Below are positions 10,007 to 28,546 of a stretch of DNA of 32,000 bases, piece after piece (position 1 is the stretch's first letter; each line of letters opens with the position of its first letter). The translations under genes and the position numbers were made by a program. The stretch is from assembly GCF_000009705.1 (NCBI RefSeq), contig NC_003276.1, forward strand, positions 180,001 to 212,000. Reading direction: 5' to 3'. The notes below the pieces were generated by a model. The model searched no databases and had not been told where the DNA came from. It was given only the letters and a program-made list of their open reading frames with translations. Source of the stretch: Nostoc sp. PCC 7120 = FACHB-418 (GTDB taxonomy: Bacteria; Cyanobacteriota; Cyanobacteriia; Cyanobacteriales; Nostocaceae).

Positions 10007-13000
10007 ACAATTACAACCATTATCAAGTCGGTGGTAGTTTACGAGAAGGTACAGAAATTTACGTTCATCGTCAAGCCGATAGTGATTTGTATACAGGACT
10101 AAAAGCGGGAATATTTTGCTATGTTCTCAACTCTAGACAGATGGGTAAATCAAGTTTAAGAGTGCGTACCATGTCGCGCTTACAGTCAGAAGGATTTGTT
10201 TGTATTGCCTTTGAAATGCGTGAACTCTGCGTTTATCAAGTGAGTGCAGATGAATTTTATGGAGGATTTGTCAGCCATTTTGCTAGTGAACTCAACATTG
10301 AAATTGATTTAGAATCTTGGTGGTCTCAAAATGCTTTGCTACATCCATTTTTACGGTTGAGTAAATTTGTGGAAGAAGTTTTACTAGCAAATATATCTCA
10401 GCAAATTATCGTTTTTGTAGATGAAATTGACAGTATTCTCAATCTAGAATTTAAGGATGATTTTTTTGCTTTTGTAAGAGCCTGCTACAACAAACGCGCT
10501 GATAAACCCCAATTTCAGAGGTTAACTTTTGCCCTATTTGGTGTGGCGACACCCACTGATTTAATCGCCGATAATAAATTTACACCACTGAATGTAGATA
10601 GTAGCGCCATCGAACTTACAGGTTTTCAATTGTCCGAAGCCAAACCCCTGGAACAAGGCTTAATTGAGGTGGCTGCAAATCCTACCAAGGTGATGGCAGA
10701 AATTTTAGCTTGGACTGGTGGACAACCATTTTTAACTCAATGGTTATGTCAACTAATTAATACAGCAAATACTTTTATTGCATCGGGATGGGAAAATTCA
10801 GCAGTAGAAGCGATTGTGCGATCGCAAATGATCGAACATTGGTTAGCAAATGACCGACAGCAGCATTTTCAAACAATTCGCGATCGCATTCTTCACAATA
10901 AATCTTTGGCTTGTTGGTCATTAGGACTTTATCAGCAATTGCTCAATAAAGGGGAACTTTCGGCTGAAGATAGCTGGGAGTTGATGCAGTTGTGTCTTTC
11001 TGGTTTGGTTGTCAAACGTCAAGGTAAATTGAGTATCTATAACCGCATCTACGCCACTGTTTTTGATTATACCTGGACAGAAAAAGCTTTGCGTGCTATC
11101 CGTCCCTATGGTGCAGAACTCGCCGCTTGGGAAATTTCTCAAGATGCTCAATATTTGCTGCAAAATGAAGCATTGCAGTGGGCGTTGGTTTGGGCAAAAG
11201 GATTGAGTTTAAGTCATAGTGATTATCAATTTTTATCTGCTAGCCAAGCCCAAGAACTAGCGATCGCCCAATCCAAAACCCAAACAGCGATACAACAAGA
11301 AACTCAAGCAATTCAGCGATTGAAAACCGTACAACATCAAACCAAAAAACGATTGCGAATTGGGGCGATCGCGCTTTCTGCGGCTGTAATTAGCACCATC
11401 GGCACGTTTTTCTACTTCCAGCAATCAGAACAGCAACTCAGAACTAATGCAGATATCTTAAATTTAGAACGCGAAGGAAGCCGAATTTTGCAAGTGCGTG
11501 CAGATGGCAATCAACTGAAGGATTTGCTAGGGGCGATGAAATTAGCGCAAAGACTCAAACAATTGACCAAACAGCATTCTTTTAAACATTTACCCACCCA
11601 CACGCCTTTATTTGCCCTACAAGCTGTTCTTGCCACGATTAATGAGCAGAATCGTTGGCATTTAGATAGTCCGGCGGTAGCGATCGCCTTTAGCCGTGAT
11701 GGACAAAAACTAGCAACTGGAGGAGAAGACGGGGCGATAACTCTTTGGACACTACAGGGAAAGAAAATTCAGACAATCAAAACTCACAAAACTAAAACTC
11801 TCCAAGGCTTCCCGATTTCCATTACTTCTTTGAGTTTTAGTCCTGATGGTCAGTATATTTTATCTGCTGACTCCGACTATGAAATCCAGGTTTGGCATCT
11901 CAAAACAGGTACTCTTGTCAATAAGCTAAAACTCGATCAAGAAACTCTTAGCGATGTCCAATTCACAAATGACAACAATATTGTGTTAGTCAACGACTTT
12001 GGCAGAGTTGCAGTCTTGAATTTGCAATGGAAATTACTTTACACTAGGCAGATTGCTCCACCTCAACAGGGTATTGACCTTACTATTAGTTTAGAAGGTG
12101 ATGCAATTGTCTTTATCAATGCCCAAGGAAAACCGGAAGTTAGAGACATTAAAACTGGTACGTTGATCAAAACCTATCCTAACATCACCCATAATTTAGG
12201 CGATCGCCTTTGGCACAGTTTCCACACAAAAGATGGTGCTTACATTTCTGCCAATCTCAACACCCTCAAATTGTGGCATCCAGACGGAACTTTACAAGCA
12301 GAAATCAAAACTCATCAATTGCTGGTTTCTGGTTTTAGTTCTAGCTTTGATGGTTCTGTCATCGCCACGAGTCACCCAGATGGAATGCTGAAACTCTGGA
12401 AAATCCATCCTCAAAAAATCTCCACTACATTAACACCACCAATACAAACTCCCCGTGTGGTTGTGGGAAATCAACAACGCATCAACCGCATACAACTACC
12501 GGGTGAAAAACTAAAAATTGCTGGGGCAAAATCTGATGCTCAAAATAGAATTATGGATGCCACTCTGAGTCCTGATGGACAGATAATTGCTGCCACAAAA
12601 TTCAATGGAGAAATGACGTTATATAAGGCAGATGGCAGCGAACTCAGAACAATACAAACTAATCTTCCGGAAAGTATGATTAAAGTTAGTCCCGATGGTT
12701 CGCGTTTAGTTTTGTTATCAATTCGTCAGCAAAAAATACAATTCAGGTTAGCAAATGGGGATTTAATTCAAGAAATGGATGCTGCTCATTATAAACCAGG
12801 AATCGAATTTAGTCCCGATGGCAAAGAGTTGGCAATCGCTGGTAATGAACCCGATAAAATTCAACTTTGGAGTAGTGAAGGTAAATTTTTAAAGACTATC
12901 AAAGATGCAGATTCGCTCTACTTTAGCCCCAACAATCAAACCTATATCACAGTAACTTCTGCCAATAACCCCATACCCACCCTGCGCCTATGGAGAAGAG

Positions 13001-13578
13001 ACGGAAAACTGCTCAAAACCCTATCAGGACAACCCCATGAAATCACAGCAATGGGATTTTCCCCCAGTGGTCAGTTTATGGTTGGCGATCGCTTTGGTAA
13101 ACTGGTAGTCTGGTCGGCTGAAGGTAATCTTATACAAACCCTCAATCATGGCGCAGCAATTATTGATATCGCTCTCCGTAACGACGGACAGCAGTTGGCG
13201 ACGGTGGGAATTAATCAAAATATCAAACTTTGGCGTTCTGATGGTACATTCATTCGCACACTTGAAACCAATCAAATTGGTCGCTTTGAATTTAGCCCAG
13301 ACGGGCAATTGTTGATTGCCAAGACTATTGATAGCACAATCCATATCTGGCAAGCCGACGGCACACCTATTACTCGCATCCCTATGGGTGGTGCATTTAA
13401 TACATTCCTCAATTTTACCCCAGATGGCAACCGTTTGATTTCTAGCAGTGGGTCAATGCTCTATTCTTTGAACCTGAATCTTGACGATCTCCTCACCCAA
13501 GGTTGCAATTGGCTGGGCGACTATTTCCAGAACCATCCCCAGGAGTTGCAGCAACTTCCATCTTGTCATAACCAATAG
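10003..13578 (+). CDS. AAA_35 NTPase - single TM helix - ~14 WD40 repeats (1191 aa)
   Basis: The N-terminus YVHRQADSDLY...YVLNSRQMGKSSL (Walker A) and IIVFVDEID (Walker B) are typical of the AAA-like domain family. The hydrophobic segment LRIGAIALSAAVISTIGTFFYF spans aa ~452-472 (nt 11356-11418). From ~11665 onward there are repeated FSPDGQ...x(15-20)...LW blades. Confidence 0.85.
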   Translation: MNNYNHYQVGGSLREGTEIYVHRQADSDLYTGLKAGIFCYVLNSRQMGKSSLRVRTMSRLQSEGFVCIAFEMRELCVYQVSADEFYGGFVSHFASELNIEIDLESWWSQNALLHPFLRLSKFVEEVLLANISQQIIVFVDEIDSILNLEFKDDFFAFVRACYNKRADKPQFQRLTFALFGVATPTDLIADNKFTPLNVDSSAIELTGFQLSEAKPLEQGLIEVAANPTKVMAEILAWTGGQPFLTQWLCQLINTANTFIASGWENSAVEAIVRSQMIEHWLANDRQQHFQTIRDRILHNKSLACWSLGLYQQLLNKGELSAEDSWELMQLCLSGLVVKRQGKLSIYNRIYATVFDYTWTEKALRAIRPYGAELAAWEISQDAQYLLQNEALQWALVWAKGLSLSHSDYQFLSASQAQELAIAQSKTQTAIQQETQAIQRLKTVQHQTKKRLRIGAIALSAAVISTIGTFFYFQQSEQQLRTNADILNLEREGSRILQVRADGNQLKDLLGAMKLAQRLKQLTKQHSFKHLPTHTPLFALQAVLATINEQNRWHLDSPAVAIAFSRDGQKLATGGEDGAITLWTLQGKKIQTIKTHKTKTLQGFPISITSLSFSPDGQYILSADSDYEIQVWHLKTGTLVNKLKLDQETLSDVQFTNDNNIVLVNDFGRVAVLNLQWKLLYTRQIAPPQQGIDLTISLEGDAIVFINAQGKPEVRDIKTGTLIKTYPNITHNLGDRLWHSFHTKDGAYISANLNTLKLWHPDGTLQAEIKTHQLLVSGFSSSFDGSVIATSHPDGMLKLWKIHPQKISTTLTPPIQTPRVVVGNQQRINRIQLPGEKLKIAGAKSDAQNRIMDATLSPDGQIIAATKFNGEMTLYKADGSELRTIQTNLPESMIKVSPDGSRLVLLSIRQQKIQFRLANGDLIQEMDAAHYKPGIEFSPDGKELAIAGNEPDKIQLWSSEGKFLKTIKDADSLYFSPNNQTYITVTSANNPIPTLRLWRRDGKLLKTLSGQPHEITAMGFSPSGQFMVGDRFGKLVVWSAEGNLIQTLNHGAAIIDIALRNDGQQLATVGINQNIKLWRSDGTFIRTLETNQIGRFEFSPDGQLLIAKTIDSTIHIWQADGTPITRIPMGGAFNTFLNFTPDGNRLISSSGSMLYSLNLNLDDLLTQGCNWLGDYFQNHPQELQQLPSCHNQ

Positions 13579-13772: not shown

Positions 13773-16700
13773 TTAATGCTGCATCTCTACATCTCGTTTA
13801 TTCAAGATTGCCTCAACTTTAGTATTCGCATTCTCAAAAGTCTCTAACAGTTGGGGGGTTATTTTGTTGACTGTTATCTTGCCAGTCTCAACTTTCAAAA
13901 GTACATCTCCATCTTTTTGAGCAATGACTAAATCTTTGCGATCTCCGTTATAAGCCAAATCGTAAACTTTGCCCCTAACCACAGTAAAACCATCTTGGGC
14001 AGGCTGTCCCCAGACCATGCCAATCCTTTGCGCCATTTCGGTGAGCCGACTGATGTTGTGCAAGTCTTGCTTATCCTGTTGCATTGCCGCATAAGCTTTA
14101 TCCGATAACGCCTGACCTGCTTTGAAAGCATTGCCTATTTCCACAATGCGTTTTTTGTATTCATCAGGCTTGCCTAAGTTATGAGCATTGTCATACCAAT
14201 TCCTCAAGTCTTCAATAGTGACGGGAGGATTTGGCGAAGTCTTTTGTTGAGAATCTACAACTTGATTGTTAACTGTTGGCTCTCGATTTGATGCAATTTG
14301 ATTGACTATTGACGGCTGTGACGGTTGTAAAGACTGAGGGCGGTTCGGCAGCGATCGCACCATATCCTGATACTCCTGTTGCGACTCAATCACTGCACCA
14401 AACTTCTTAGTCATCGCCGCACTAACCGACTCAGGTATAGATGAATTGACCAAGTTGAAAACCGCTAGTCCTTTTTTAGTTTCTAGGGGAACTTCGTCTG
14501 GTAGTATTTGGGCGATCGCCACATTCTTCTGCTGCAACCATTGACAGACGGTCGCCACCTTGTGATTGTCCACGGCCATGCGCGTGATGCCAAGCATTTT
14601 ATCTTCAGGACTAGCGAACAATATGGTGGGACGCTCTTTGATTTTTTGCAATATCGGTGCAGTCTTTTCTAAGAGAAGTTGCTGTTCTTGGTTGAGTGCT
14701 TGAGTGCCAAAAGCCTGAGATTCCTTTGTCCAACTTTTGGGATACTTAATACTCTCTGGGTCTACTTTCAGTACAGTGGTCGAGAAATTACTTTGGAGGG
14801 TTGCTTGCACCTGTGTCAACTTTCCCGGTTGTAAAGCGCCTAGTTCTTTAAGAGCTTCCTTGTCTTTTTTGAAAAACAACACACCCAACGGCTGACCATT
14901 GAGAAACACTGCATCTTTGACCTGAGTTTGTGATACTTCTAACGTCAGCTTGCGATAGTTTTCATCATTAAATGTTTGCCCTTTGTAGTCATACTGTCCA
15001 ATATTATTGATTCTTAGTAGATTTCCGTTTGGCGATTCAGCCAGCACAAATCCCAGATTTTCTTTGTCAGAAATTGTTTTTAACTTGAGGTTGAAGGGTT
15101 GACCATCTTTAACAAGATTAAATGGTTGCAGCTGTTTGATTGAATCAGCATCTAATTCCCCTAGAGTTTTACCGTCTAGTTTGATTTTCACCGTTTGACT
15201 AGGTACTGATTTTGTGCCAATCTCTAATTTCACCGACTCAGCATTGAAGGTTTGTCCTGCATAAGCGAACTTGCCAATTTCTCTGATAGTGAAATTTACC
15301 TCCGGCTTTCCTGGAACTGCAATCGTGGCATTGGCTGTGTATGTTTCACCAGGGATAATATTAGCCAGAGCTTGAGTACCAATTGGTAGCTGTCCGGTTC
15401 TTGGTTCGAGCGATGCGTATTCCTTGTACTCGCCATTAGTATCCTGTACGAATACTAATCTTGAAGCGTGGCGCTCATGTCCTCTTGGATGGTGAGATGC
15501 CCTGATTTCAATCGGGTATTTCTCGTCGGGATGCCAAACTTTATCTTTGAAATTGTTCGCCTCGCTGCCCAATGTCCCTAATGTCATTTCATCAAATTGC
15601 AATTGTCTCAGTCGGGAAACAATTTCTTCTCCAAATGCAGCAAACACAAAGTTGGGTATTTTCTTTTGGATTGCAGTTTGAGACTGTTTATTTTCCTCCT
15701 CTCCATCATTTTTACGTTCCAGTTCATCCTGTCTTGCCGCACCAACACTCCATGCGGCGGCGGCGGCTCCTAATCTCTGCTCTGATGGTATACTTTCTCG
15801 GAACTTCTGGGCGTACTGGTTTGCCTTATCAAACATCAGCTTTGTCTGACTACGGCTTAGTTCTGGCTTCAATTCCACAAGTAGAGCATTATTGGTAGCC
15901 ATTCCTGGCTTGAGGTTGTAATCAGCCACTGACTGCTGACTCACTGTCCCCAGCTTGCGGTACAAGGGTTTGCCATCATCTGTCAGTTCATTATCAATTT
16001 GCGCTCTTGCTAATAATTTATGCGGTCGTTCTTTGCTGGGGTCGCTGTCTATCGTTTCCAGTTTCAGGTTTATCGTATGTGCCTTCCAAATACCGGGATG
16101 CCCATAGCGCGTGAGGTTCGTCACCTCGATTTGGGTTCCTTGACTCGTTTGGATCACCGCAGACGGCCCTTGCTCAGTTTCGCGCTTTATATCTATCCGC
16201 ACTGCCGCATTGAACAGTCGGTCATACTCGAATTTGGTGGCGATCGCTTCTAATCTCTGCTGCGATGTGAACTCTACTCCTTTAAATAAATCTTGAAACT
16301 GAACGATAGGACGTGATTCTAATTGTGATTGCTGAAAATATTTATTAGTTTGGATAATTAATAATTCTACTGGGGAATAGCCTTTAGTTTTGATACCCTC
16401 GTCTAAATAAATTGTTTTTAATTTCTTATCTTTAATGTAATTAACATCTCGATATAAGTAGCGATTATTCTCCTTAATTAACCCCATTTCTGGTGTTTTA
16501 GAGCTTTTAAACAGGTCTACCGCTATCTGGTTTTGAAAACAACCTTCTTCAATCATCTTCCGGTACATTTGGCGATTAACTTTCATCGCCTGAAGTATGA
16601 TTTGGGGCGCTCTCTCGGTCTGGGCTAGAGCTACAAAATCTTCCATGTATGATTTGTACTCTTGCCTAATTGGTTTAGGGCGTTCTTGGTTTTCTTGGGA

Positions 16701-18563
16701 GAATAATTCTTGATAGTGAGATGACACCTTATCTAAATATTCAGACTTCTGTTCTGGTGTCCCATAAGTTTTTAAGATTTCAATTTCTGATTCTAGGGCT
16801 TCCAGTGCGGTAACTTGATTATTAATTACCCCAACACTGATACTATCGCTCATGTGGATAGCTATTTCTTCAAAGGGTGGTTGTGTGCCATCGGGTAGAT
16901 AAAACGATTGTTTTTTCAGTTTGACTGTGGGAGCATAAGCATTTTCAACTTGGTTCTTGTACTCGGCTTCTGCCGTAAAATTAGGGTATAAGCTTGCTAG
17001 GGCTACACCAATACAGTCACCGTCAAAGTCTCTACCCTGGCGTTCTGACTCGGTTTCTAATGGGTCTAATTCGTCGGTATCTATTCCTTGCGCTTCCAGA
17101 GTAGCAATTCTAGCCTTGATGCGAGAGTGGTCTTCATCATTTACGACAATAACACCTTTTAAATTCGCACCGTCTGGTGCAAGTCTATCTTTAACAAGTT
17201 TATTAGCTGAAACGCACAAACCGTTAGAATTGAGAAAAGGTGAACGGAAGTTTAAAACTTTTTCCCCATCATCTAACCAAGGTACGCATATTTCACCGTT
17301 TTTCAGTTCCTTTGATGGGATTATCATCCCTCGGTCAAATGTTAAAGTGCGCCCGATTGCAATATCTTTCCATTCATTCTGTACAAATCGACTCAGTTCC
17401 TTCCTTACTTTCTCAGTTTCTAAAAGCTGATTATGTCCTCCAATTAAGTCAGCTTTAATAATTCTGTACATTAACAAATCTTCTTTCGGAGATTCGTCAA
17501 GTTCATCGCTTACTTCAAATTCTTCTGATTCTTTATTCCGGGTTAGTAGTTCTAATTGTTTTGCTAATTTTCCATCAGTATTTTGTTCAGTAATTTGTTG
17601 CTGTATAGCAGCTTTTTGTTCCTCAGTGAAAGCCTTACGTTTTTCATACTTTTCACAGTAAAGTTCTGCTACTTTCCTGGGGTCTGACTGCATTTCGGCT
17701 AATTTCAGGGCTTGTGCCTCTAGTTCCTCAGCGAAGTCCTTAATCCCTTGAGTAAATGAGGCTAATAACTGAGATATCGCTGTTTTACCGCGCTCGGATT
17801 GAGACTTTTCGCCTAGCCATATTTTTTGTTTGTATAACCCTGGTCGGATCTGTGGCTTGCTTGCTCCATCAGGGCGATCCTTATCTGTGCCTTTGAAGCT
17901 GGATAGAGGGAGGATTAAATCTATTTTGGGTTCATTATTTGGGTTGGCATATTCTATTTTATCTAATCTATAGGGTCGTAGTGTCCCTTTCCCAAACCTG
18001 TATTTAGTATCTGTTCCATCAGCATCTTTCCATCCAAAGCGATGCTGAATCACATGATAACTTTTATCTGGTTGTTCTTCGTGTTTAGTTAACTTTTCAT
18101 AAAGTTGGGTTGATATTTGTCCATAGCAATCTCCCACCATTTTATAGGCTAAATCATTTGATAATATATTTCCATTATCACCATTAGAATCATCAACAAT
18201 TAAAATATTTAATTGTTGATGAATTGAATTTTTACAACCACCTAGAAAGATGGAGCCGTAAGCTCCTCTGTCTTTCCTATCAGGGCATAATTTATCAATT
18301 ATTTCCAGGCATTCAGGTGAACCATATAGTAATCTAGTTTTGGATGATAATAACAATATATGTCCATCTGGGTGATTTTTTAAATCTTCTGGTGTACTAT
18401 GTTCATCTATATGTCCAAAAGAGAATTGTTTATCTGGAAAGTAAAACTCTAGTAGAGTATTATCTAATTTTTCAGTTAAAATTGAGTCAGGATTCTTATT
18501 ATCTCCGTCAGTATGAATCCATTGGTTTAGTCTGGTATCAAAATGCTTAAACTCAAGAGACAT
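13773..18563 (-). CDS. Giant single-chain double-psi beta-barrel polymerase, eukaryotic-RdRP / YonO-like (1596 aa)
   Basis: Uninterrupted 4.8-kb ORF with ATG start. It has colinear motifs GDCYGQIS (aa 144-151), VIQHRF..YRFGKGTL (171-195), LNFRSPFLNSNGL (437-449) and GRDFDGD (510-516; GAC TTT GAC GGT GAC at 17016-17030 on the minus strand). The C-terminal ~1000 aa are unassigned and include a tandem domain duplication. Coding status is near-certain; the function is inferred from motifs. Confidence 0.65.
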   Translation of the reverse strand: MSLEFKHFDTRLNQWIHTDGDNKNPDSILTEKLDNTLLEFYFPDKQFSFGHIDEHSTPEDLKNHPDGHILLLSSKTRLLYGSPECLEIIDKLCPDRKDRGAYGSIFLGGCKNSIHQQLNILIVDDSNGDNGNILSNDLAYKMVGDCYGQISTQLYEKLTKHEEQPDKSYHVIQHRFGWKDADGTDTKYRFGKGTLRPYRLDKIEYANPNNEPKIDLILPLSSFKGTDKDRPDGASKPQIRPGLYKQKIWLGEKSQSERGKTAISQLLASFTQGIKDFAEELEAQALKLAEMQSDPRKVAELYCEKYEKRKAFTEEQKAAIQQQITEQNTDGKLAKQLELLTRNKESEEFEVSDELDESPKEDLLMYRIIKADLIGGHNQLLETEKVRKELSRFVQNEWKDIAIGRTLTFDRGMIIPSKELKNGEICVPWLDDGEKVLNFRSPFLNSNGLCVSANKLVKDRLAPDGANLKGVIVVNDEDHSRIKARIATLEAQGIDTDELDPLETESERQGRDFDGDCIGVALASLYPNFTAEAEYKNQVENAYAPTVKLKKQSFYLPDGTQPPFEEIAIHMSDSISVGVINNQVTALEALESEIEILKTYGTPEQKSEYLDKVSSHYQELFSQENQERPKPIRQEYKSYMEDFVALAQTERAPQIILQAMKVNRQMYRKMIEEGCFQNQIAVDLFKSSKTPEMGLIKENNRYLYRDVNYIKDKKLKTIYLDEGIKTKGYSPVELLIIQTNKYFQQSQLESRPIVQFQDLFKGVEFTSQQRLEAIATKFEYDRLFNAAVRIDIKRETEQGPSAVIQTSQGTQIEVTNLTRYGHPGIWKAHTINLKLETIDSDPSKERPHKLLARAQIDNELTDDGKPLYRKLGTVSQQSVADYNLKPGMATNNALLVELKPELSRSQTKLMFDKANQYAQKFRESIPSEQRLGAAAAAWSVGAARQDELERKNDGEEENKQSQTAIQKKIPNFVFAAFGEEIVSRLRQLQFDEMTLGTLGSEANNFKDKVWHPDEKYPIEIRASHHPRGHERHASRLVFVQDTNGEYKEYASLEPRTGQLPIGTQALANIIPGETYTANATIAVPGKPEVNFTIREIGKFAYAGQTFNAESVKLEIGTKSVPSQTVKIKLDGKTLGELDADSIKQLQPFNLVKDGQPFNLKLKTISDKENLGFVLAESPNGNLLRINNIGQYDYKGQTFNDENYRKLTLEVSQTQVKDAVFLNGQPLGVLFFKKDKEALKELGALQPGKLTQVQATLQSNFSTTVLKVDPESIKYPKSWTKESQAFGTQALNQEQQLLLEKTAPILQKIKERPTILFASPEDKMLGITRMAVDNHKVATVCQWLQQKNVAIAQILPDEVPLETKKGLAVFNLVNSSIPESVSAAMTKKFGAVIESQQEYQDMVRSLPNRPQSLQPSQPSIVNQIASNREPTVNNQVVDSQQKTSPNPPVTIEDLRNWYDNAHNLGKPDEYKKRIVEIGNAFKAGQALSDKAYAAMQQDKQDLHNISRLTEMAQRIGMVWGQPAQDGFTVVRGKVYDLAYNGDRKDLVIAQKDGDVLLKVETGKITVNKITPQLLETFENANTKVEAILNKRDVEMQH

Positions 18564-18602: not shown

Positions 18603-19139
18603 ATGTCAGGAACAAGAATTAAACGTTGGCTAAATATGCACGGCAAAGAATTTAATCCAGATGGAACAATAAAGGATGAGGTTAGACAGCAAAAAATATC
18701 TCAAGGGAGAAATCCCGCCGCAGTTGATAGTTATGCTCAAAGATTGAAAGAAGAATTTGACGAATGGAAAAGGTTGGACGAAACAGATCCCGAACCCTGG
18801 CCCATCTTCACCGCCTACGATTTCTTTACCCCCACAGAAAAACAACAGTTCAACCCAGATGGCTCTCTCAAGCCCGAATATAGGGAGTCTGAACTGGCAC
18901 GAGGAACTAGCGAAAGTTGGTTAGATGAAATGGAGCGACGTAAAAAGCTGGAGGTTGATAGCTACAACAAGGTATCTGCAAGAGATGCCGAAATAGGGAT
19001 CAATTTTGGCGAACAGGAAATGAACCGATTACTTGCAACGAGCCTCACATATTTAGAACGCCACAAACAGATGGAAATCGACTTGCGAAACTGTGAAGAA
19101 CCAAGCTCACTACCTTTCGACAAAGATACGCCTTGGTAG
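18603..19139 (+). CDS. Hypothetical charged protein with internal FNPDG(T/S)(I/L)K..R duplication (178 aa)
   Basis: ATG preceded by AGGAG (caggagtttaatATG). It is divergent from the giant ORF with only a 39-nt spacer. No family recognised. Confidence 0.6.
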   Translation: MSGTRIKRWLNMHGKEFNPDGTIKDEVRQQKISQGRNPAAVDSYAQRLKEEFDEWKRLDETDPEPWPIFTAYDFFTPTEKQQFNPDGSLKPEYRESELARGTSESWLDEMERRKKLEVDSYNKVSARDAEIGINFGEQEMNRLLATSLTYLERHKQMEIDLRNCEEPSSLPFDKDTPW

Positions 19140-19835: not shown

Positions 19836-20240
19836 TTAAATCTCCCATTCCAAGTCAGGTTCTTGAGATTGGGATGGAGATACAACCTGTGTCTTGGGTG
19901 TATCTGGCTCCAGAGGATTTGTGCCGTCCTGAAAGATTTCCTGAGCCAAAGTCCGCCCATCACCATCAATATCACTGGCTAAAAAATACTCCAGAACCTG
20001 CGGTGGCGCACCAGAAACAGCCGCTTGTGCCAGCAAAGATTTGACAAATTGAGGGGATGCCTCACTATCTGCCAGTATCTTCAAGGTCTGTTCGGCATCA
20101 GAGACAGTCATTTTGGAAATGTCTTTAACTCCGGCTTCGTCCCAAACATCCCCAAAATACTGTCGATATTGCTGATTGAAGTCTTGCTCTTGGGCAAATC
20201 TTGCTAATTCTTGTACCTGCAATTGGGTCGTTTCGGTCAT
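19836..20240 (-). CDS. Hypothetical acidic protein with an EF-hand-like DxDxDG loop (134 aa)
   Basis: The ATG lies 1 nt after the stop of the upstream AIPR gene, suggesting translational coupling. DIDGDGRTLAQE (aa 90-101, nt 19938-19973) fits the 12-residue EF-hand loop at positions 1, 3, 5, 6 and 12. Confidence 0.6.
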   Translation of the reverse strand: MTETTQLQVQELARFAQEQDFNQQYRQYFGDVWDEAGVKDISKMTVSDAEQTLKILADSEASPQFVKSLLAQAAVSGAPPQVLEYFLASDIDGDGRTLAQEIFQDGTNPLEPDTPKTQVVSPSQSQEPDLEWEI

Positions 20241-20241
20241 A

Positions 20242-21444
20242 TTAATTTGCTAATGTTAATTGTTCGCGTTTGTTGTTTGAGTCAACCATTTTGAGTAACT
20301 GTTGATTCAGGTAACTCTGAGCCGAAACGTAGAGGTTATCCCAAATAACTGGGTTACGACAGATTTTGCTACCAACAGTATTGAGAGCCAGTTTCTCTGA
20401 CACCAAATATTTACGGTAGTAGTTATTCCACAAATGTTGTAGAAAATCCTCCGCGAAATCATCAAAAGGGATAATCCAGTTGTACTGTTCATCCAAAAAC
20501 ACCCGGTAGGCAGCAACAATGGGCATAGCAATATCAGCCGGCGCACTAAAACCGAACGAATATCTGCTATCGGGCAATAGTGTATTCTTGCGTGGGTCAA
20601 TTGAGGCGAGGTCAACTACTCCCTTTCTTTTAGGCTTGGTGATATGCTCCTCGATTACCTGAAATAGTCGTTGCTCAATCCATAACCCCTTGGACAATAA
20701 CGGTAATAGTTTCGACAGCCGTTGTCTTTCAGCCTCGCTCAATGACGGCGTATTGCTAACAGGTGGGTGTTTGGTTCTGCTTTTAGAGTCTGGATTGTAT
20801 TTATTCCTATCCAAACAATTCATTAATTTGATGAGATGGTTGACGTTACACTGTGGACTCTTGGGCGCACCGCTTTGGTTCTGGTAGTATGCAACTCTGA
20901 ACTTTGTTTTTTGCTCACGTTCTAGTTGTGCTAAGAACTGCTTGAGGAATTTATAGTCACCCTTGGCATTTACTTTTGAACGGGCATCCACTGGGGCAGA
21001 TGTATTTGATGCCAAGGCTATATCCTTAGCCTCATCTTCAGTTAAACCAATATGAATTGTGACTTTGACTCTAGCTTCGGTTAGGTCATATTTATAATTT
21101 CTTGCTTGCTCAAAAGCTAAAACTGTATGCCCACCATTAATGATGCCATCACTACCACCCTCATTAGCTTCTAATACCTCTAACTCTAGCTGTGTCTTTT
21201 TGCTGTTGGGTTTGACTTTATTGGCACACAATACGATACCACTATGACGCTCAAAGAATTTTTCTGGTTGAGTCGTCACCGAGTCAAATATTTGTCTGTA
21301 TGTTGCACTTTTCTTGTTCGGCTCACGAATATTCGGCTCTAGGGGTAGGTCGGCTGGAAATGTGTCTACATGAGCAGTAGCAATAATACAGTTAGGATTT
21401 GCATTGAAATACTGGTCTACTATTAAAGTCCAATTCTTGGGCAT
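20242..21444 (-). CDS. AIPR-family (abortive infection phage resistance-like) protein (400 aa)
   Basis: NIREPNKKSATYRQIFDSVTTQPEKFFERHSGIVL....GSDGIINGGHTVLA follows the AIPR N-terminal pattern (N.R....I..T....PE.F...N.GI.....IVNG.QT). GIINGGHT was verified at nt 21124-21147. It is shorter than many AIPR proteins. Confidence 0.6.
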   Translation of the reverse strand: MPKNWTLIVDQYFNANPNCIIATAHVDTFPADLPLEPNIREPNKKSATYRQIFDSVTTQPEKFFERHSGIVLCANKVKPNSKKTQLELEVLEANEGGSDGIINGGHTVLAFEQARNYKYDLTEARVKVTIHIGLTEDEAKDIALASNTSAPVDARSKVNAKGDYKFLKQFLAQLEREQKTKFRVAYYQNQSGAPKSPQCNVNHLIKLMNCLDRNKYNPDSKSRTKHPPVSNTPSLSEAERQRLSKLLPLLSKGLWIEQRLFQVIEEHITKPKRKGVVDLASIDPRKNTLLPDSRYSFGFSAPADIAMPIVAAYRVFLDEQYNWIIPFDDFAEDFLQHLWNNYYRKYLVSEKLALNTVGSKICRNPVIWDNLYVSAQSYLNQQLLKMVDSNNKREQLTLAN

Positions 21445-21747
21445 CTTCTTCCTTGATTGACAATAAAAATTGTTGGTTTGCTAATCATAAGGTAGCAATA
21501 ATTACGAAGACATTGATTTGATTATTTTATATTTTTTACTGAAAGATATTTAGAGATTTTTCTGAGAAAATTACTAAATATTGTGAAATAATTCAATTAT
21601 TAATCAATAAATTATATCTCTCAAATAGTTATTTAAAATCTTGATTAATATTTGCATCAAAAACAGCTATTTTGCCATTATCTCGTAGTACAATAGTTCT
21701 AGTAAACGGTGGAATCGTCTACTGCCAAAAGTCAAAACACACCAATT

Positions 21748-21769
21748 GCTTCTGGAATATTCCAGAAGC
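21748..21769 (-). terminator. Perfect 22-nt palindrome GCTTCTGGAATATTCCAGAAGC, 10 nt downstream of the ABC transporter stop
   Basis: An 11-bp self-complementary stem. T5 flanks it on the + side and GTGTGTTTTGAC follows it on the - strand transcript. Confidence 0.55.
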
Positions 21770-21778
21770 TTTTTGTCG

Positions 21779-23626
21779 CTAACCTCTAAAAAGCAGAATC
21801 ATAAATAATATCGATATCATGACCCCGATTAAATAAATTAGATTCCAATTATTTCGGGATACATCAGTGTATATAAGCCGTTCATAACCATCTAGAATGC
21901 TTTGAATCAACAGATTGGCTTTTAATAAATCATTATTCAGTGACGAGGTTCTTTTTATCTTCCCTAGACCGGGAAATTCGCACTTGGTAAACACATTTTT
22001 GTTGTAACAGTTACATTGGGCTATCAATGCAGTTGGTAATGTTTTCCTTTGGCTTTCAGACTTCTGCCAACAGAAATCATCAGCTATGTCTGCCCCCATT
22101 TTTGATAGAAATACTAAATTTTCAAATGAGTATTTGGAAAGCATTAATTGGCTAAAAGCCTTGGCATCGGGATTACTATTGAGGTTCTCGGTTGGTTGTA
22201 TTCCACCGCCAAAGACGATTTGAAAAACTAACAAGACCAGTATTATTAAGGGGGCTACACTTTGATTGGGAGCAACGGCACTTACAATCAAACCCAACAC
22301 CATACTACCAAAGGATGCCAGAAACAAGGTCAAGTACATTGCTGCTGTATTAGTATCCGCGCCAGGAACATCAACTGCACCCAGCATTAGATAAAATAGC
22401 ACCGCCGATTGGTATAAAGCGAGTACCCAAGCTAGAAGCAGCTTAGATATCAGATAAGGTGCTAGTCCCAAGCCGACGCTTCTTTCTCTTTTGTAGATTG
22501 GTCTTTCCTTTGCTATCTCCGGCATCATTGCCAGTGAACCAGACATTATTGCCATCACCACCACAACAAACAGCATAGAGATGGATTGCCCTGCATTCCC
22601 AGTTTTGGTACTGAACAGGTCGGATTTCCACAGTACAAAATTGAGTGACCCCAGAATGGGCGCTCCCAACAGCATTAATGCCAAGCTCAACTTATTTTTG
22701 AGCAGAATAGACAGATTACGCTGGCACAACACCACCAGTTGTTCTCTCAAATTAGGTTTATCTGCTGTAGGTGCTTGCTTCTGTTGCGGTAGCGATTGCA
22801 GGCGCTCGCTCACAAACTTTTTGTAGTAGCCCGATGATTTAAACCGTTCTTCCCATTGTGCCGGGGAGAGTTGATGTTCTACTTTATGATAGATTGCATC
22901 AAAATCTTGTACCCCGAAATAGTCTAATGCCAACTTGGGCGGCCCCACGTATGCCAGTCGTCCACCTTTGGCAAGGAAAACTACTTGATCGGCGATCCCT
23001 ACATTCTTAGTTGCATGAGTAATTAAGACTACGGTACTGGCCTGATCACAAAAAGAACGCAACAACGACATGATTTGTAATTCTGTTCCTGGGTCTAGTC
23101 CAGATGTCGCCTCATCTAGAAAAAACAAACTGGGGCTGCTGATGAGTTCCACTCCTATGCTGACTCGTTTACGTTGTCCTCCACTGAGTTGCTTAACTGG
23201 GACATTCTTTCGCTCCACCAGATGCAAACGTTGTAGTATTGCTTCTACCCATTGCTGCTGTTCGCTAATTGATAGAAAGGGTACTCGAAGCTGGGCAGCA
23301 AACATGAATGCTTCCCAGACAGTCAAGTCAAGATGGACTATATCATCCTGGGGAACATAACCGATGAGGTTCTTGAATGCGTGATAGTTCTTGTACAGGT
23401 CAACCCCATCAATTAATACTTTCCCCCTGGCTTTTCGTTGCCCATTGAGTGCATCAATCAATGTAGATTTTCCGCCACCACTCACCCCAGCGATGACAAT
23501 AAACTCGTTCGGCAAGAACGACAGCGAGATTTCGTTAAGTAACGTTGTTGAGGCAAGTATAGGGTGGCTATATTTTCGCAAGTCGATGGCATCTAATCTT
23601 AGTCCGGCTCTTCGCCTGGTTAACAT
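21779..23626 (-). CDS. ABC transporter, fused ATP-binding domain + ABC-2 type permease (ABCG-like half transporter, 615 aa)
   Basis: Walker A GVSGGGKST, signature LSGGQRKRVSIG, Walker B LFFLDEATSGLD and H-loop LITHA, followed by ~6 hydrophobic segments. A Cys-containing loop (DFCWQ..QCNCYNKNVFTKCEF) precedes the last TM. Confidence 0.9.
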   Translation of the reverse strand: MLTRRRAGLRLDAIDLRKYSHPILASTTLLNEISLSFLPNEFIVIAGVSGGGKSTLIDALNGQRKARGKVLIDGVDLYKNYHAFKNLIGYVPQDDIVHLDLTVWEAFMFAAQLRVPFLSISEQQQWVEAILQRLHLVERKNVPVKQLSGGQRKRVSIGVELISSPSLFFLDEATSGLDPGTELQIMSLLRSFCDQASTVVLITHATKNVGIADQVVFLAKGGRLAYVGPPKLALDYFGVQDFDAIYHKVEHQLSPAQWEERFKSSGYYKKFVSERLQSLPQQKQAPTADKPNLREQLVVLCQRNLSILLKNKLSLALMLLGAPILGSLNFVLWKSDLFSTKTGNAGQSISMLFVVVVMAIMSGSLAMMPEIAKERPIYKRERSVGLGLAPYLISKLLLAWVLALYQSAVLFYLMLGAVDVPGADTNTAAMYLTLFLASFGSMVLGLIVSAVAPNQSVAPLIILVLLVFQIVFGGGIQPTENLNSNPDAKAFSQLMLSKYSFENLVFLSKMGADIADDFCWQKSESQRKTLPTALIAQCNCYNKNVFTKCEFPGLGKIKRTSSLNNDLLKANLLIQSILDGYERLIYTDVSRNNWNLIYLIGVMISILFMILLFRG

Positions 23627-23956: not shown

Positions 23957-25198
23957 TTAATATAACTTCTTGCTAGTTAAATATCCATTTTTCACCCTCA
24001 CCTGGGCTAACGAGGAAGGAGCGGGTGGCTGAACATAATAATCAGGGACTAAAGGTTTATCTTGGCGGTCATATCTTAGATTCAAATCCAGCATTTTGAT
24101 ATGACTAATGTGAGATCCCCAAACATCACATACTCTATCTCCTAATCCCATTGTGTCCAGATATTTAGGAAGTTCCATCCCACCATTCCAGCACATGGGA
24201 ATACCTTCATTGTCAAAATGTTGGGTTAGCTCGTGACGCACAAAACTTGCTGTTCCCCCGCAAATTAAAACCTCATCCATCGCAGCTATCCCTTTTAGCC
24301 ATCGTAGTAGAGCGCGAGTGTATTCTTCACGGACTAGCGGTAATATTTTCTCAAATAACTCTACATCCAAATTTATGTCTTGTTGTTTATTTTTCCGTGA
24401 TAATCGGCGCAATGAATCAAAATCTCCTTCTCCCGCTTCTACTATTGCCTTAATTAAACGTGAATCTTCTTTAGATAAGCCTACAGCAGTTCTCTCAACA
24501 AATTGACTGACTATCCAATTCATCCCTAAATCTGTCGATTCCGCTTTTGATGAGTTACCTTTCATTGAAAGTGTAAAACTAGCATTCCTATACCCCAACA
24601 TCAACATTCCTATGTTCTTTTGAAAATAGTTGACGTTGACATTACGACTGCGATACGCCAATAGCCCAGACCCCTCCAAAGCCCCGTTAAAACTTCGGAT
24701 TTTGCATTTGAACTTCCCTGTTGGGGTTTGTACACCTATCTTAAATACCTGTAAGAGTTGTCTGCCTAAATGATTAGCATCTGCTATTTCCCCTGGTGGC
24801 AGCAATATCTGTAAATAAATCTCCAAATCGTCTTTTATCCCCAATCCCAACCGACGACAAGCTAACCACATCAATGCGGCTATCTTTGGCATGGCATACT
24901 TGTATTTCAAGTCTTTTATCGCTGATGACCCAGCAAACATACTTTTCGACAGCGCTCCTAAGACATAGTATTCTTCACCAATACCTATCCACACTGTGTT
25001 GTCTTGCACTGAGGATTGGCTTGATAAAAACTCAATGGAACCGTAGCCTACATCTGCTATCTCCGGTTCCATTGGTATTACTATTGGCACTCCATCTGGA
25101 TACACCTGTGCTAAAGCTTTAGCTGTACTCGCCCCTAAATCAAGTGTTAATGCAACTTTTGTGTACTCTTTGGAGTCCGAGTTGCTTTTTCTATTCAT
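23957..25198 (-). CDS. Actin-fold ParM/StbA-like plasmid segregation ATPase (413 aa)
   Basis: The N-terminal phosphate-1-like LTLDLGASTAKA, the mid-protein MLMLGYRNASFT and the adenosine-motif-like VLICGGTASF occur in the order expected for the actin/ParM fold. The sequence is divergent. Confidence 0.6.
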   Translation of the reverse strand: MNRKSNSDSKEYTKVALTLDLGASTAKALAQVYPDGVPIVIPMEPEIADVGYGSIEFLSSQSSVQDNTVWIGIGEEYYVLGALSKSMFAGSSAIKDLKYKYAMPKIAALMWLACRRLGLGIKDDLEIYLQILLPPGEIADANHLGRQLLQVFKIGVQTPTGKFKCKIRSFNGALEGSGLLAYRSRNVNVNYFQKNIGMLMLGYRNASFTLSMKGNSSKAESTDLGMNWIVSQFVERTAVGLSKEDSRLIKAIVEAGEGDFDSLRRLSRKNKQQDINLDVELFEKILPLVREEYTRALLRWLKGIAAMDEVLICGGTASFVRHELTQHFDNEGIPMCWNGGMELPKYLDTMGLGDRVCDVWGSHISHIKMLDLNLRYDRQDKPLVPDYYVQPPAPSSLAQVRVKNGYLTSKKLY

Positions 25199-25714: not shown

Positions 25715-26077
25715 AGTTTTTCAAACTCTAACTATAGCAACACAGATATCTGACAATTATTACATTTTTTATTCTTTAGCTTGGTTAGGATTGAATATTT
25801 AATTATTAAAAGTTCTCATTTCTCTTCTTTTACTCACCATTAGTTCTCAAAATTGCTCTAAATATTCAAAAAAACTTTTATCGAACAATTGTTATATATT
25901 ATTTAGCAGTATCAATTGAAAATTACTCCACCAAACTCTCGACAATCTTCGCTTACTCATAACTTTTTTCGCCAACTTTTATAATTATTAGCAAACCCTA
26001 CTAAATAAGTGGGGTTACTGTTGTTTTACGTGTGGAAAATGTAGCGTAAATTACTATGCAAAAAGAGTCATAAATAG

Positions 26078-26201
26078 CTCCTAAAAAGGTGTTATCCACC
26101 ACCTTTTTTGGACTAAAAATGCAGGTTTGTTATCTTTTTCTGACATTCTTGTACGTCCAAAATAGGTGTCAGACGACAGTTGTTCAACACCTTTTTTGGA
26201 C
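26078..26201. promoter_or_regulatory. Four copies of a 15-nt motif GTCCAAAAAAGGTGT arranged as two inverted pairs
   Basis: A is 26078-26092 (+, 13/15). B is 26099-26113 (-, 14/15). C is 26155-26169 (+, 14/15). D is 26187-26201 (-, 15/15). They lie in the AT-rich 1.1-kb non-coding gap between the par-like cassette and the mob gene. Confidence 0.55.
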
Positions 26202-26839
26202 TCCCTTTTTTAGGGATTAAATCGATACAGCCCTTGTCAATACTAGCCTTGAGTCTTCTTTTAGCCTCTTTTTCATTCTCAATAACTTCAAAATTATTGA
26301 GAATGCGTACTACAAAAATGTTGCAAATGAACTTCAAAAATAACTGTTTTTTCTTGTTGTGCTACAAAACACTACTAAAAATTACAAATTAGCACTGGTT
26401 AACCTTGAATCGCCGTTCAAAAATTCTGTTATCAACCATTTTATTCTGGAGTCATCCGTGAAAAATTATGTAAGCAGTCCATAAATTCTCATTAATTTAG
26501 AGTTGTTGACAATAAAATAGCCCCAAAGCCTTGATATTACGTGGTTTTTTAGCCAAAAACCCAGAAAATCAGGTGTTATGTACTTAGGCTTTAATTGTGA
26601 TTATAGTGACTGTATTACTGGCAAAATCTTGTAGATAGCGGGAGAACTGCCCCAGAAGTGCTGTAGGATCGACTAAAATAGTCGTACTCACTACGTTTAT
26701 CTACCCATTTTCGCATTTGAGCGATTAGGCTTCAAAAGTGGCGTAAAATCGGGGAAAAACAGCAATAATTTGCGTGATATTTGTTTCTCCCTCAGCCAGT
26801 CCAAAAACTCGTATTTCCAAATTTTAGCGTAAAGAAAAA

Positions 26840-28546
26840 ATGGCATACGCGATCGCCCGATTAAAAAAATTAAAGCGGGGCAATATATCAGGGAGTGCAT
26901 CTCACACCGCACGAGAACGTGAAACTCCTAACGCAGATCCCACCCAAAAAAATATTAGGTTCATCGGTAGCCTTGACCCGGATGAACGATTAGAGGATTT
27001 AGTCTTAGCCAAGATAGGGGACTCGGAGCAGAGGCGAAAAATTCGCACTGATGCAGTTTACTGTGTAGAGTTTTTGCTAAGTGCCTCCCCCAGTTATTTC
27101 CGTCCTGATTGCCCAACCAATGCTGGTTACTATAAACCCCAAAAATTGGATGATTGGGTAGAAGCGACTCACCAGTGGTTGGCGGATGAATATGGCGATC
27201 GCATTGTCAGAGCCGAGTTACACCTGGATGAAGCCACCCCCCATATTCACGCTTACTTTGTGCCAATTGATGATCAAGGGCAATTGCGCTGTAATCATTT
27301 CTTTGACGGCAGGCAAAAAATCCACGCCTTTCAAGATTCTTACTACAACACGATGCACCTGATTGGGCTGGAGCGTGGCATCAAGGGCAGTAAAGCCAAG
27401 CACCAGGACATCAAGGATTTTTACCGCATTGTGGAGGAGGGGCGAGATTTAGAGGTTGATGAGCTAAGTGCAGCGCAATTAAAGGCTAAAGCGGCTGACC
27501 GAGACAGAGCGACTGAGCGTAAACAGGAGATGGAAGCTACAGCCAAAGCTCTAGCGAGTGAAAATGAAGAGCTACGGCGACGAATTGAGCAATTAGAGCA
27601 AGATAATCAGCAATTACGACTCAAGAGCGAATGGTCAACTGATTTAGCTTTGGATGATGTTGCTTGGGAGTTGGGACTGTGGCGTAAAGGCAATGAGTGG
27701 GTGGGAAGAAACCACATCATTAATATAGATGGCTCTGGATTTACTGACTTTGGCAATGGTTTAGTATTGTCGGGTTATGGGGCGCTCGACTTGGTGAAAC
27801 ACGTTAATCAATGCAACCAAACCAGTGCCATCGCATGGTTGGGGGAACGATTTGGGAAAGCTGGCGCAGAACGTACAGCGATCGCTCATGCTAAAAAAGT
27901 TGCGGCTGACATTATCCAGACTCAAAGCGCACCCCAATTTACCCTACCCGTTGAGGAAAAATCTAACTGGTCAAGAGTTGAAAATTACCTTACCCAAAAA
28001 CGGGGAATCCCCTCTGATTGCGTACAGATGCTACATAACCAAGGGCTAATTTATGCCGACTCAAAAGCAAATGCCGTGTTTGTCATGCGGGATCTCGACG
28101 GGAATACCAAAGGCGCATTTTTACAAGGGACAGCTAATACATTCTCTGGTTATGAATTAGGTACTAAGCGCCGCTCTTGTTGGTTTTACTTTTCTTTAGG
28201 TGGCAAAGCAACTGATAAAAGCTCTCAAGCAGTGCTGTGTGAATCTCCCATTGATGCTATTTCACTGTTTGTACTGGAATATCACGTTAAAGGAATACCA
28301 GACAACAGAACACTTTACATGGCAGTAGACGACACCTCAAGTTTACCTTTTGAACGATTACGTCATGTTCCTCATGTACAAGTAGCTTTTATTCAACCAA
28401 ATATGGCACGGACTGTTAAAGAACTACTGCCAAAATCGAAGTTACTCAAGTGTGAAACTCTTGATTGGAATACGCAGTTAGTCAATTCCTCTCGTCAATT
28501 ACAACAACGGCGTTTACAACAAAACAATCAAGAATTAGAGCTATAG
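26840..28546 (+). CDS. MobV-family relaxase (Mob_Pre) fused to DUF3991 and Toprim domains (568 aa)
   Basis: The N-terminus MAYAIARLKKLKRGNISGSASHTARERE and HLDEATPHIHAYFVP (HxDE..PHxH, nt 27221-27250) are MobV hallmarks. A coiled coil spans aa ~205-262. ENYLTQKRGIP...GLIYAD...AVFVMRDLDGN is DUF3991-like. The Toprim E (LCESPIDAISL) and DxD (MAVDDT) are present. Confidence 0.85.
   Translation: MAYAIARLKKLKRGNISGSASHTARERETPNADPTQKNIRFIGSLDPDERLEDLVLAKIGDSEQRRKIRTDAVYCVEFLLSASPSYFRPDCPTNAGYYKPQKLDDWVEATHQWLADEYGDRIVRAELHLDEATPHIHAYFVPIDDQGQLRCNHFFDGRQKIHAFQDSYYNTMHLIGLERGIKGSKAKHQDIKDFYRIVEEGRDLEVDELSAAQLKAKAADRDRATERKQEMEATAKALASENEELRRRIEQLEQDNQQLRLKSEWSTDLALDDVAWELGLWRKGNEWVGRNHIINIDGSGFTDFGNGLVLSGYGALDLVKHVNQCNQTSAIAWLGERFGKAGAERTAIAHAKKVAADIIQTQSAPQFTLPVEEKSNWSRVENYLTQKRGIPSDCVQMLHNQGLIYADSKANAVFVMRDLDGNTKGAFLQGTANTFSGYELGTKRRSCWFYFSLGGKATDKSSQAVLCESPIDAISLFVLEYHVKGIPDNRTLYMAVDDTSSLPFERLRHVPHVQVAFIQPNMARTVKELLPKSKLLKCETLDWNTQLVNSSRQLQQRRLQQNNQELEL

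Follow-up and report, generated by a model that had tools for sequence, protein, structure and literature searches.

The stretch of DNA analyzed here, 32,000 nucleotides long and hereafter called the window (Nostoc sp. PCC 7120 = FACHB-418, contig NC_003276.1, positions 180,001 to 212,000), contains a gene for a giant protein of 1596 amino acids (aa) that is predicted to be a single-chain polymerase with two domains of the double-psi beta-barrel type. Two-barrel polymerases consisting of a single chain are known from eukaryotic RNA silencing (QDE-1 and the RDR enzymes), from the prophage protein YonO and from virions of crAss-like phages. Within the window, the gene (hereinafter, the polymerase gene) is the last in a block that consists of a mobV relaxase gene, a hairpin-rich spacer of 1.1 kb, a gene for a 154-aa protein together with a ParM-like gene, variable cargo, two small genes, a gene for a 178-aa protein (the partner gene), and the polymerase gene itself; all these genes are co-oriented with the polymerase gene except for mobV and the partner gene (Table 1). 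The region is syntenic with the Nostoc plasmid pNSMS102, the closest complete plasmid, and this synteny, along with the presence of the MobV relaxase and the ParM-like gene, bears out the first-pass annotation of the window, which had placed the polymerase gene on a plasmid or mobilizable element.

Table 1. Positions of the polymerase gene, its domains and the associated plasmid features in the window
Feature	Position	Strand	Remarks
Polymerase gene	13773..18563	-	Complete open reading frame, 1596 aa: predicted two-barrel polymerase (aa 1-~1000) and ~600 aa of non-catalytic C-terminal domains
N-terminal beta-rich domain, aa 1-110	18234..18563	-	AlphaFold2 secondary structure; H7, F8 and D9 nearly invariant
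First double-psi beta-barrel (beta/Rpb2-like), aa 112-262	17778..18230	-	D145 (GDCYGQIS), R175 (VIQHRF), K192-G193 (YRFGKGTL)
Helical insertion between the barrels, aa 264-403	17355..17774	-	Acidic loop aa 317-361 disordered, pLDDT below 50
Second double-psi beta-barrel (beta'/Rpb1-like), aa 408-522	16998..17342	-	R440-S-P442 (LNFRSPFLNSNGL), predicted metal-binding D512-F-D514-G-D516
Post-catalytic helical region, aa 527-800	16164..16985	-	AlphaFold2 model and family-specific invariant motifs
Beta/alpha domain, aa 801-990	15594..16163	-	Conserved in every size class; profile matches reach ~position 1085-1100
Array of small beta-barrel domains, aa 992-1270	14754..15590	-	Second AlphaFold2 model; holds the tandem duplication
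Alpha/beta domain, aa 1290-1404	14352..14696	-	Second AlphaFold2 model; no recognizable relatives
Disordered Q/P/S/N-rich linker, aa 1414-1445	14229..14324	-	pLDDT 29-45
C-terminal module, helical and beta, aa 1446-1596 (LRNWYDNAHNLGKPDEYKKRIVEI...AGQALSDKAYAAMQQD)	13776..14228	-	Kept at the extreme C-terminus of all family size classes
178-aa partner gene	18603..19139	+	Divergent; start 39 bp from the polymerase start
ParM/StbA-like partition gene	23957..25198	-	Homologue annotated ParM/StbA in pNSMS102
Intergenic region between the p154/parM block and mobV, 1.1 kb	25715..26839		Several hairpins
MobV-family relaxase	26840..28546	+	Mob_Pre aa 1-195, DUF3991 aa 382-456

Catalytic residues and predicted fold of the polymerase

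The open reading frame (ORF) of the polymerase comprises 1596 codons of the minus strand, with an ATG start and no internal stops; in alignments, its N-terminal sequence, MSLEFKHFDTR, coincides with the conserved beginning of the homologous proteins, and its G+C content (40.8%) equals that of the window. The first-pass annotation had described a 1596-aa ORF with four motifs of double-psi beta-barrel polymerases, and translation recovers each of them where it had been placed, namely GDCYGQIS (aa 144-151, nt 18111-18134), VIQHRF (aa 171-176, nt 18036-18053) together with YRFGKGTL (aa 188-195, nt 17979-18002), LNFRSPFLNSNGL (aa 437-449, nt 17217-17255), and GRDFDGD (aa 510-516, nt 17016-17036). 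The pentapeptide DFDGD is found once in the protein, compared with 0.0008 occurrences expected from the protein composition.

Eight residues are invariant in all two-barrel RNA polymerases (RNAPs), in QDE-1 D709, R738, K743, R962, P964, D1007, D1009, and D1011 (PMC2919709), and all of them have counterparts in the Nostoc protein: D145, R175, and K192 in the first barrel, and R440, P442, and D512/D514/D516 in the second barrel. Thus, the two signatures of the superfamily can be recognized, i.e., a DxDGD triad (D512-F-D514-G-D516) preceded by R-x-P (R440-S-P442), both invariant in the family, and one aspartate with two basic residues contributed by the beta-like barrel (D145, R175, and K192). 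In alignments of 35 and 30 homologues extending to ~32% identity, D145, R175, K192, G193, R440, P442, D512, D514, G515, and D516 are invariant or nearly so. When 21 giant relatives, all very divergent (mean column identity 15%), are aligned, the same catalytic columns are among the only 19 that stay invariant. Judged at the sequence level, the agreement of the motifs exceeds chance. Two cysteines, C110 and C146, are also invariant throughout the family, with C146 directly following the catalytic D145 (GDC). The two could be joined in a disulfide or bind a metal close to the active center.

For aa 1-1000, an AlphaFold2 model based on 35 homologues reached a mean predicted local distance difference test score (pLDDT) of 85.7 and a predicted TM-score (pTM) of 0.81, with the acidic loop between the barrels being the sole long disordered stretch. 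When this model was compared with the PDB using Foldseek, the first ten places were all occupied by QDE-1 (7y7t_A, 2j7n) or plant RDR2 (7w84, 7eu1_M), with a probability of 1.0, E-values from 3.5e-9 to 2.4e-6 (7y7t_A at 3.5e-9 as the best QDE-1 match; RDR2 at 1.3e-7 to 2.9e-7), and ~930-1160 aligned columns. The Pol IV subunit NRPD1 and the beta'/Rpb1 chains of bacteria, archaea, and viruses rank behind these as local matches; the multisubunit beta'/Rpb1 chains show E-values of at least 9e-4 and a TMq of ~0.1, so that the model is closer to single-chain enzymes of the RNA-dependent RNA polymerase (RdRP)/YonO type. In the BFVD database, the top places go to phage proteins labeled "RNA dependent RNA polymerase" (E-values of 2.7e-11 and 2.2e-6), accompanied by other YonO-like phage proteins and then by pieces of crAss-like virion RNAPs, including that of Cellulophaga phage phi14:2 (E-values from 5.5e-3 to 7e-4). 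The earlier assignment to the RdRP/YonO type of double-psi beta-barrel polymerases is therefore upheld by the structure prediction and the fold comparison with QDE-1 and YonO that had been proposed as its check.

The model contains two six-stranded barrels, with strands at aa 112-123, 147-151, 172-178, 189-198, 216-219, and 242-255 in the first and at aa 408-417, 435-440, 450-454, 471-475, and 517-522 in the second. The DFDGD motif directly precedes the last strand of the second barrel and, by the fold match, the respective loop would lie at the barrel interface. Taken at the confidence of the model, the protein very probably belongs to the branch of single-chain two-barrel polymerases that includes cellular RdRPs, YonO, and the crAss-like virion RNAPs. 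Given this fold and a complete, strictly conserved set of catalytic residues, catalytic activity is very likely.

The two-barrel superfamily also includes the DNA polymerase PolD (PMC7281927), and sugar selectivity is unreadable from the present data; a DNA polymerase like the archaeal PolD or, alternatively, a catalytically dead scaffold could thus be envisaged in place of an RNAP. We regard both variants as highly improbable given that there is no PolD chain, including archaeal DP2, among the 50 best fold matches in the PDB and that the strict conservation of the eight catalytic residues across hundreds of clusters argues against a scaffold.

Downstream of DFDGD, the family shares invariants of its own, K548/K551, VGxINN (577-582), and QNQIAVDLFKS (677-687), the latter closing a long helix (aa 653-686). 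A second AlphaFold2 model, covering aa 780-1596 (pLDDT 81, pTM 0.42), resolves the C-terminal half into several small domains. Among these is a tandem duplication of a beta-barrel domain of ~90 aa (IREIGKFAYAGQTFN... and INNIGQYDYKGQTFN...; ~aa 1090-1180 and 1185-1270), which yields a self-alignment score of 72 vs 28 +/- 5.6 for shuffled sequences (z ~7.8). A Foldseek search of the PDB with the C-terminal half produced nothing below an E-value of 1e-3, the best match being the non-significant one to the di-Mop domain of ModE (E-value of 9e-3; Mop/TOBE-type barrels). The "DUF3945" label carried by two homologues in UniRef was not reproduced by Pfam.

The terminal 150 aa occupy the very C-terminus in the 1600-, 2180-, and 2580-aa versions of the family, with the consensus LRxWYxxAxxLGxPxxYxxRIxEV...AGQxLSxxAxxxMQxD. 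The same module ends two other giant plasmid proteins, a 2090-aa SNF2-related protein encoded by pREC3 of Acaryochloris and a 2578-aa protein of Leptolyngbya NIES-3755 plasmid1 named "helicase domain protein" (pairwise BLASTP E-values of 5e-12 and 1e-12, respectively); the gene for the latter is located 2 kb from a relaxase gene. The presence of one module in distinct giant plasmid proteins suggests a shared docking or export function.

Plasmid neighborhood, distribution and fused relatives

The spacer between mobV and the p154/parM block contains, among its hairpins, two with an arm of the CCAAAAAAGGTG type in common (26079-26112 and 26155-26201), as well as a 15-nt near-perfect palindrome (26274-26305), and is a candidate origin of transfer (oriT) and/or partition site; no RNA family was detected by Rfam in the window. 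The partner gene is 39% identical in Chroococcidiopsis and produced no Pfam, PHROG, or other family match; its product is a candidate cofactor or regulator of the polymerase.

The generality of this arrangement was assessed by tblastn over fetched loci, 58 of which include at least 9 kb of upstream flank. The partner gene is directly adjacent and divergent (at -545 to -589) in 54 of the 58, a ParM-like gene is encoded within 10 kb upstream in 53, and a relaxase within the same distance in 41, with a MobV homologue in 29 and a MOBP relaxase in 12 others. The linkage extends to relatives with 30-57% identity in Trichormus variabilis plasmid C, Chroococcidiopsis pCHRO.01, Tolypothrix, Fischerella, and Calothrix PCC 7716, and the genes downstream of the polymerase vary between plasmids. 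Large cyanobacterial plasmids, conjugative or mobilizable, carry the polymerase gene as part of their backbone. A DUF6753 gene, usually surrounded by small hypothetical genes that form a block, is encountered repeatedly at distances of up to ~10 kb from the polymerase gene in plasmids that are distantly related, and also beside a 3686-aa helicase-fused relative; it is possibly part of a cyanobacterial transfer apparatus.

An exhaustive profile search delineated 463 clusters (at 50% identity) with E-values of at most 1e-3, 218 of these at 1e-30 or below, with protein lengths of up to 3686 aa. The N-terminal 800 aa are encoded (tblastn) in 84 PLSDB plasmids, all cyanobacterial (from Nostoc, Tolypothrix, Gloeothece, Pseudanabaena, Chroococcidiopsis, and others); 41 of these are typed as conjugative and 15 as mobilizable. 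A GTDB scan with one genome per species yielded 369 loci, the 80 listed being all cyanobacterial, and the closest among the matches listed is that in Nostoc parmelioides FACHB-3921, with 95% identity; every family match with an organism name is cyanobacterial. A tblastn search of 50,697 phage records produced no match at an E-value of 1 or lower, and a phage origin of the family is therefore unsupported.

The Nostoc polymerase combines one recognizable catalytic module with uncharacterized C-terminal domains, and additional enzymatic domains are found only in its relatives. In one of these (P0100), a PrimPol and a PriCT-2 domain have been added ahead of the polymerase module, the only such case, whereas another (P0217) has an RNase H-like domain in this position; in three relatives (P0290, P0231, and P0307), a superfamily 1 (SF1) helicase (AAA_30 and UvrD_C_2) follows the polymerase module, and three more (P0303, P0262, and P0328) contain YAcAr/cpYpsA SLOG, DUF4326, and NADAR domains.

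Distant relatives adjoin plasmid-borne genes for replisome components, namely dnaN-dnaX-holA with an AAA ATPase in Gloeocapsa and ssb/holA/holB in Gloeothece, and yet another is found next to ParA-ParB-SNF2. Together with the PrimPol and PriCT-2 fusion and the presence of one copy per replicon, these neighbors could be taken to indicate a primase or another replisome component that serves vegetative (theta) replication of the plasmid and is unrelated to transfer. This seems quite unlikely to us because the host plasmids also encode dedicated Rep proteins (rep clusters have been typed in several of them), and the most consistent neighbors of the polymerase are the relaxase and ParM genes rather than Rep. 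In pNSMS102, a separate CyRepA1 replication protein is encoded 8 kb away, so the polymerase is not the replication initiator there, and we rejected it as a plasmid Rep.

Most plasmids carry one copy of the gene, with two or three matches in a few records, and plasmids that reside in the same strain each possess their own diverged copy, ~60-65% identical to the query in PLSDB. Five such plasmids are present in Nostoc sp. C052 (CP040273-CP040277), three in strain ATCC 53789, and two in N. punctiforme PCC 73102, a pattern that suggests a replicon-specific function. Recognition of element-specific promoters would fit this pattern, and the polymerase could accordingly be a vegetative transcriptase that transcribes dedicated plasmid genes from double-stranded promoters independently of conjugation, much as YonO does with the late genes of SPbeta or the RNAP of the yeast killer plasmids with theirs. 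YonO, which shares the fold, is indeed a DNA-dependent RNAP for the genes of its own element (PMC5467207); moreover, 28 of the 84 host plasmids are typed as non-mobilizable, and the conserved divergent partner protein could be a specificity factor. We nevertheless consider a transcriptase of this kind rather unlikely: neither a promoter set nor a regulon emerged as a candidate, the genes to which the polymerase is linked are those for relaxase/ParM or the replisome, with no conserved downstream operon, and the PrimPol, RNase H-like, and SF1 helicase fusions point to DNA replication or processing and away from gene expression.

The SLOG and NADAR fusions, the defense-type cargo near the polymerase gene (AIPR, Mrr, and STAND-like NTPases), and the rank of QDE-1 and RDR2 as the best structural matches would be compatible with an RNA-templated enzyme that copies or amplifies RNA in a plasmid-host or plasmid-phage conflict, or in a regulatory system. 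Such an activity appears improbable. Likeness of the fold does not imply an RNA template, given that QDE-1 has DNA-dependent RNAP activity as well (PMC9508822), and that YonO is DNA-dependent. The polymerase itself has no PADLOC match, the neighboring defense genes are variable cargo that is absent from most loci (AIPR is found in 6 of 58), and the RNase H-like and PrimPol fusions imply RNA:DNA hybrids.

Downstream of the polymerase gene (8717-13578, plus strand), two adjacent genes encode a 429-aa NTPase (AAA_35) and a 1191-aa protein in which AAA_35 is fused to two WD40 propellers; this STAND-like pair, which has no PADLOC match, is found in 1 of 90 related loci and is thus inserted cargo. 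Between the ParM-like and polymerase genes (19836-23626, minus strand) lie an AIPR-family gene (20242-21444, minus strand), encountered upstream in 6 of the 58 loci and here accompanied by a gene for a 134-aa protein, and a gene for a fused ABC ATPase/ABC-2 permease (21779-23626, minus strand) that is matched by the PADLOC models mad3/mad8; the counterpart of this latter region in pNSMS102 bears the annotation of FHA-domain and ABC permease genes. Downstream of mobV (28654-31423, plus strand), an AAA ATPase with weak PADLOC matches to IetA is encoded along with a DUF192 protein and a type IV restriction endonuclease of the Mrr type. The AAA and DUF192 genes are found with mobV in 17-19 of the related loci, an association that Mrr does not share. 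At the left end of the window, the cargo is metabolic and consists of genes for a YiiD_C thioesterase (823-1263, minus strand) and for a peptidase S51 (1931-2476, plus strand).

A possible role in conjugative transfer

The interpretation that we favor, by analogy with characterized enzymes and with a probability of roughly 0.45, is that of a plasmid-dedicated, DNA-templated RNAP that makes primers and/or early transcripts for conjugative transfer. DNA-templated RNA synthesis is suggested by the DNA dependence of YonO and the DNA-dependent activity of QDE-1; likewise, the RNase H-like, PrimPol, and helicase fusions, together with the replisome, relaxase, and partition neighbors, point to such synthesis on the plasmid. 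The tie to the relaxase/oriT block and the C-terminal module shared with other giant plasmid proteins make transfer and establishment the single most likely setting, although we hold this role, too, at somewhat less than an even chance. Under this scenario, the polymerase would synthesize RNA on plasmid DNA in the service of the plasmid's own transfer and establishment, and its products would prime synthesis of the complementary strand and/or serve as early transcripts made on the incoming strand. The polymerase might be synthesized by the donor and exported through the type IV secretion system (T4SS) via its C-terminal module, or else be expressed first in the recipient, in either case making RNA on the incoming single strand; this course of events is doubtful.

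Several observations weigh against this interpretation, some of them already at the level of the fold. The TM-scores over the full length are low (~0.40-0.42; TMq of 0.33-0.42 for the ten best PDB matches), and the profile searches against RdRP, YonO, and RNAP profiles that had been suggested along with the original assignment failed to support it: there was no Pfam match to the polymerase at an E-value of 1 or lower, including PF05183 (RdRP), which many YonO relatives carry; NCBIfam, PHROGs, PADLOC, and a phmmer search of PDB sequences gave no meaningful match for the 1596-aa protein; a profile of 30 family members did not reach QDE-1 or RDR2 among PDB sequences; and hhalign of the family profile with an alignment of 20 YonO proteins gave a probability of 0.7%, a weak negative because the diversity of both alignments is low (Neff ~2.7). 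By sequence criteria, the polymerase is no demonstrable member of the Pfam RdRP or YonO family, and the link to these enzymes rests on the fold and the catalytic residues. A match of the family profile to FliS among PDB sequences (E-value of 0.17) was judged spurious.

With respect to transfer, the 28 non-mobilizable host plasmids count on the same side, as does the acidic C-terminus of the polymerase, which on reading of its sequence lacks a classical positively charged T4SS signal. In plasmids of the MobV type, the polymerase gene lies across oriT from mobV, and in those of the MOBP type it lies downstream of the relaxase gene; because the gene is located on opposite sides of the relaxase in the two backbones, its placement in a "leading region" is not uniform, and we rejected the notion of a uniform leading-region gene. 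Priming might also be provided by other means. DUF3991, present in the MobV relaxase, usually accompanies Toprim primases, so that a priming role of the polymerase could be redundant; the other 110 aa of the relaxase yielded no Toprim domain. In P0100, the primase role is perhaps already supplied by the fused PrimPol domain, which would favor transcription over priming. Finally, we infer the catalytic activity, the preference for NTPs and a DNA template, and the link to transfer, with the template and the substrate deduced from context.

With one large, strictly conserved family assigned to the transfer/partition backbone of cyanobacterial plasmids, and with replication-type domains fused to its relatives, the vague notion that YonO-like proteins occur in cyanobacteria turns into a testable hypothesis on how large plasmids may establish themselves or replicate without depending on host RNAP or canonical primases. 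Confirmation would enlarge conjugation biology by a new class of enzyme, provide a tractable bacterial model of RdRP-type catalysis, and inform the debate over whether eukaryotic RdRPs arose from bacterial mobile elements; bacterial plasmids, besides phages, would then be a reservoir of the lineage related to the eukaryotic RNA-silencing polymerases.

Comparison with known systems

Cyanobacterial YonO-like proteins were recognized by PSI-BLAST as one of five families, described as possessing the eight invariant two-barrel residues and with a function called "an enigma" (Ruprich-Robert & Thuriaux 2010, PMC2919709), and were mentioned again, still as enigmatic, by Forrest et al. (2017, PMC5467207). 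The family described here, compared by description, is probably the same. It is thus better known than the first-pass annotation had supposed, whereas the point made there that no obvious function had been described agrees with these two papers. Both locate the cyanobacterial proteins "in the main genomes", without reference to plasmids or conjugation and without describing their domain architecture or structure, and our literature search found no paper linking these proteins to plasmids, conjugation, or priming. The new elements here are the high-confidence structural assignment and the linkage to the plasmid backbone, along with the partner gene, the range of fusions, and the C-terminal module held in common with other giant plasmid proteins.

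The closest structural counterparts of the polymerase, QDE-1 of Neurospora and RDR2 of plants (PDB 2J7N/7Y7T/7W84/7EU1), are likewise single chains with two domains of the double-psi beta-barrel type and the catalytic residues in the order D, R...K, RxP, DxDGD. In contrast to these enzymes, the polymerase is bacterial and plasmid-borne and has ~600 extra C-terminal residues of unrelated domains; the structural alignment shows ~10% identity, with no detectable sequence similarity, and the spacing between the catalytic R and K is 17 residues compared with 5 in QDE-1. YonO of the Bacillus subtilis prophage SPbeta is also a single-chain enzyme encoded by a mobile element and shares the four motifs in unchanged order (DGCGMI / VRLPWIKG / LRSPHL / FDNDGD). 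However, YonO is a phage-borne protein of 839 aa with a Cys4 cluster at its end that transcribes the phage's own genes, whereas the polymerase, with its 1596 aa, is linked to relaxase and ParM genes and absent from the phage records searched.

The virion RNAP of crAss-like phages, exemplified by gp66 of Cellulophaga phage phi14:2, is another case of a two-barrel RdRP-like fold inside a giant mobile-element protein. This enzyme is delivered along with the DNA and starts early transcription. It is a phage structural protein that enters via the tail, and its likeness to the polymerase is much lower than that of QDE-1 or the YonO-like proteins.

Among plasmid proteins, the nearest functional parallels are Sog (IncI1) and TraC (IncP), large proteins that are transferred with the DNA during conjugation and make RNA primers on the transferred strand (PMC5512222). 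Sog, TraC, and the polyvalent primases use Toprim or archaeo-eukaryotic primase (AEP)/PrimPol folds, whereas the polymerase has neither (there is no Pfam match to Toprim or Prim-Pol, the domains that define conjugative primases) and can therefore be at most a functional analogue of Sog and TraC. The "polyvalent proteins" are giant multidomain proteins of conjugative elements and phages, some with PrimPol and PriCT-2 modules; their primase modules, like the N4-type virion RNAP, are early-acting parts delivered with the DNA, and the same survey reports a paucity of polyvalent proteins in cyanobacteria and lists no two-barrel RNAP among such proteins (Iyer et al. 2017, PMC5512222). The relatives of the polymerase, with their PrimPol, helicase, and NADAR/SLOG fusions, resemble these proteins. 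On the interpretation favored here, the polymerase would be a plasmid-borne counterpart both to the conjugative primases Sog/TraC and to the RNAPs that phages deliver from the virion; if it does make RNA on the incoming single strand, which is doubtful, it would represent a third, structurally unrelated class of conjugative primase or early transcriptase, the plasmid equivalent of the crAss-phage virion RNAP.

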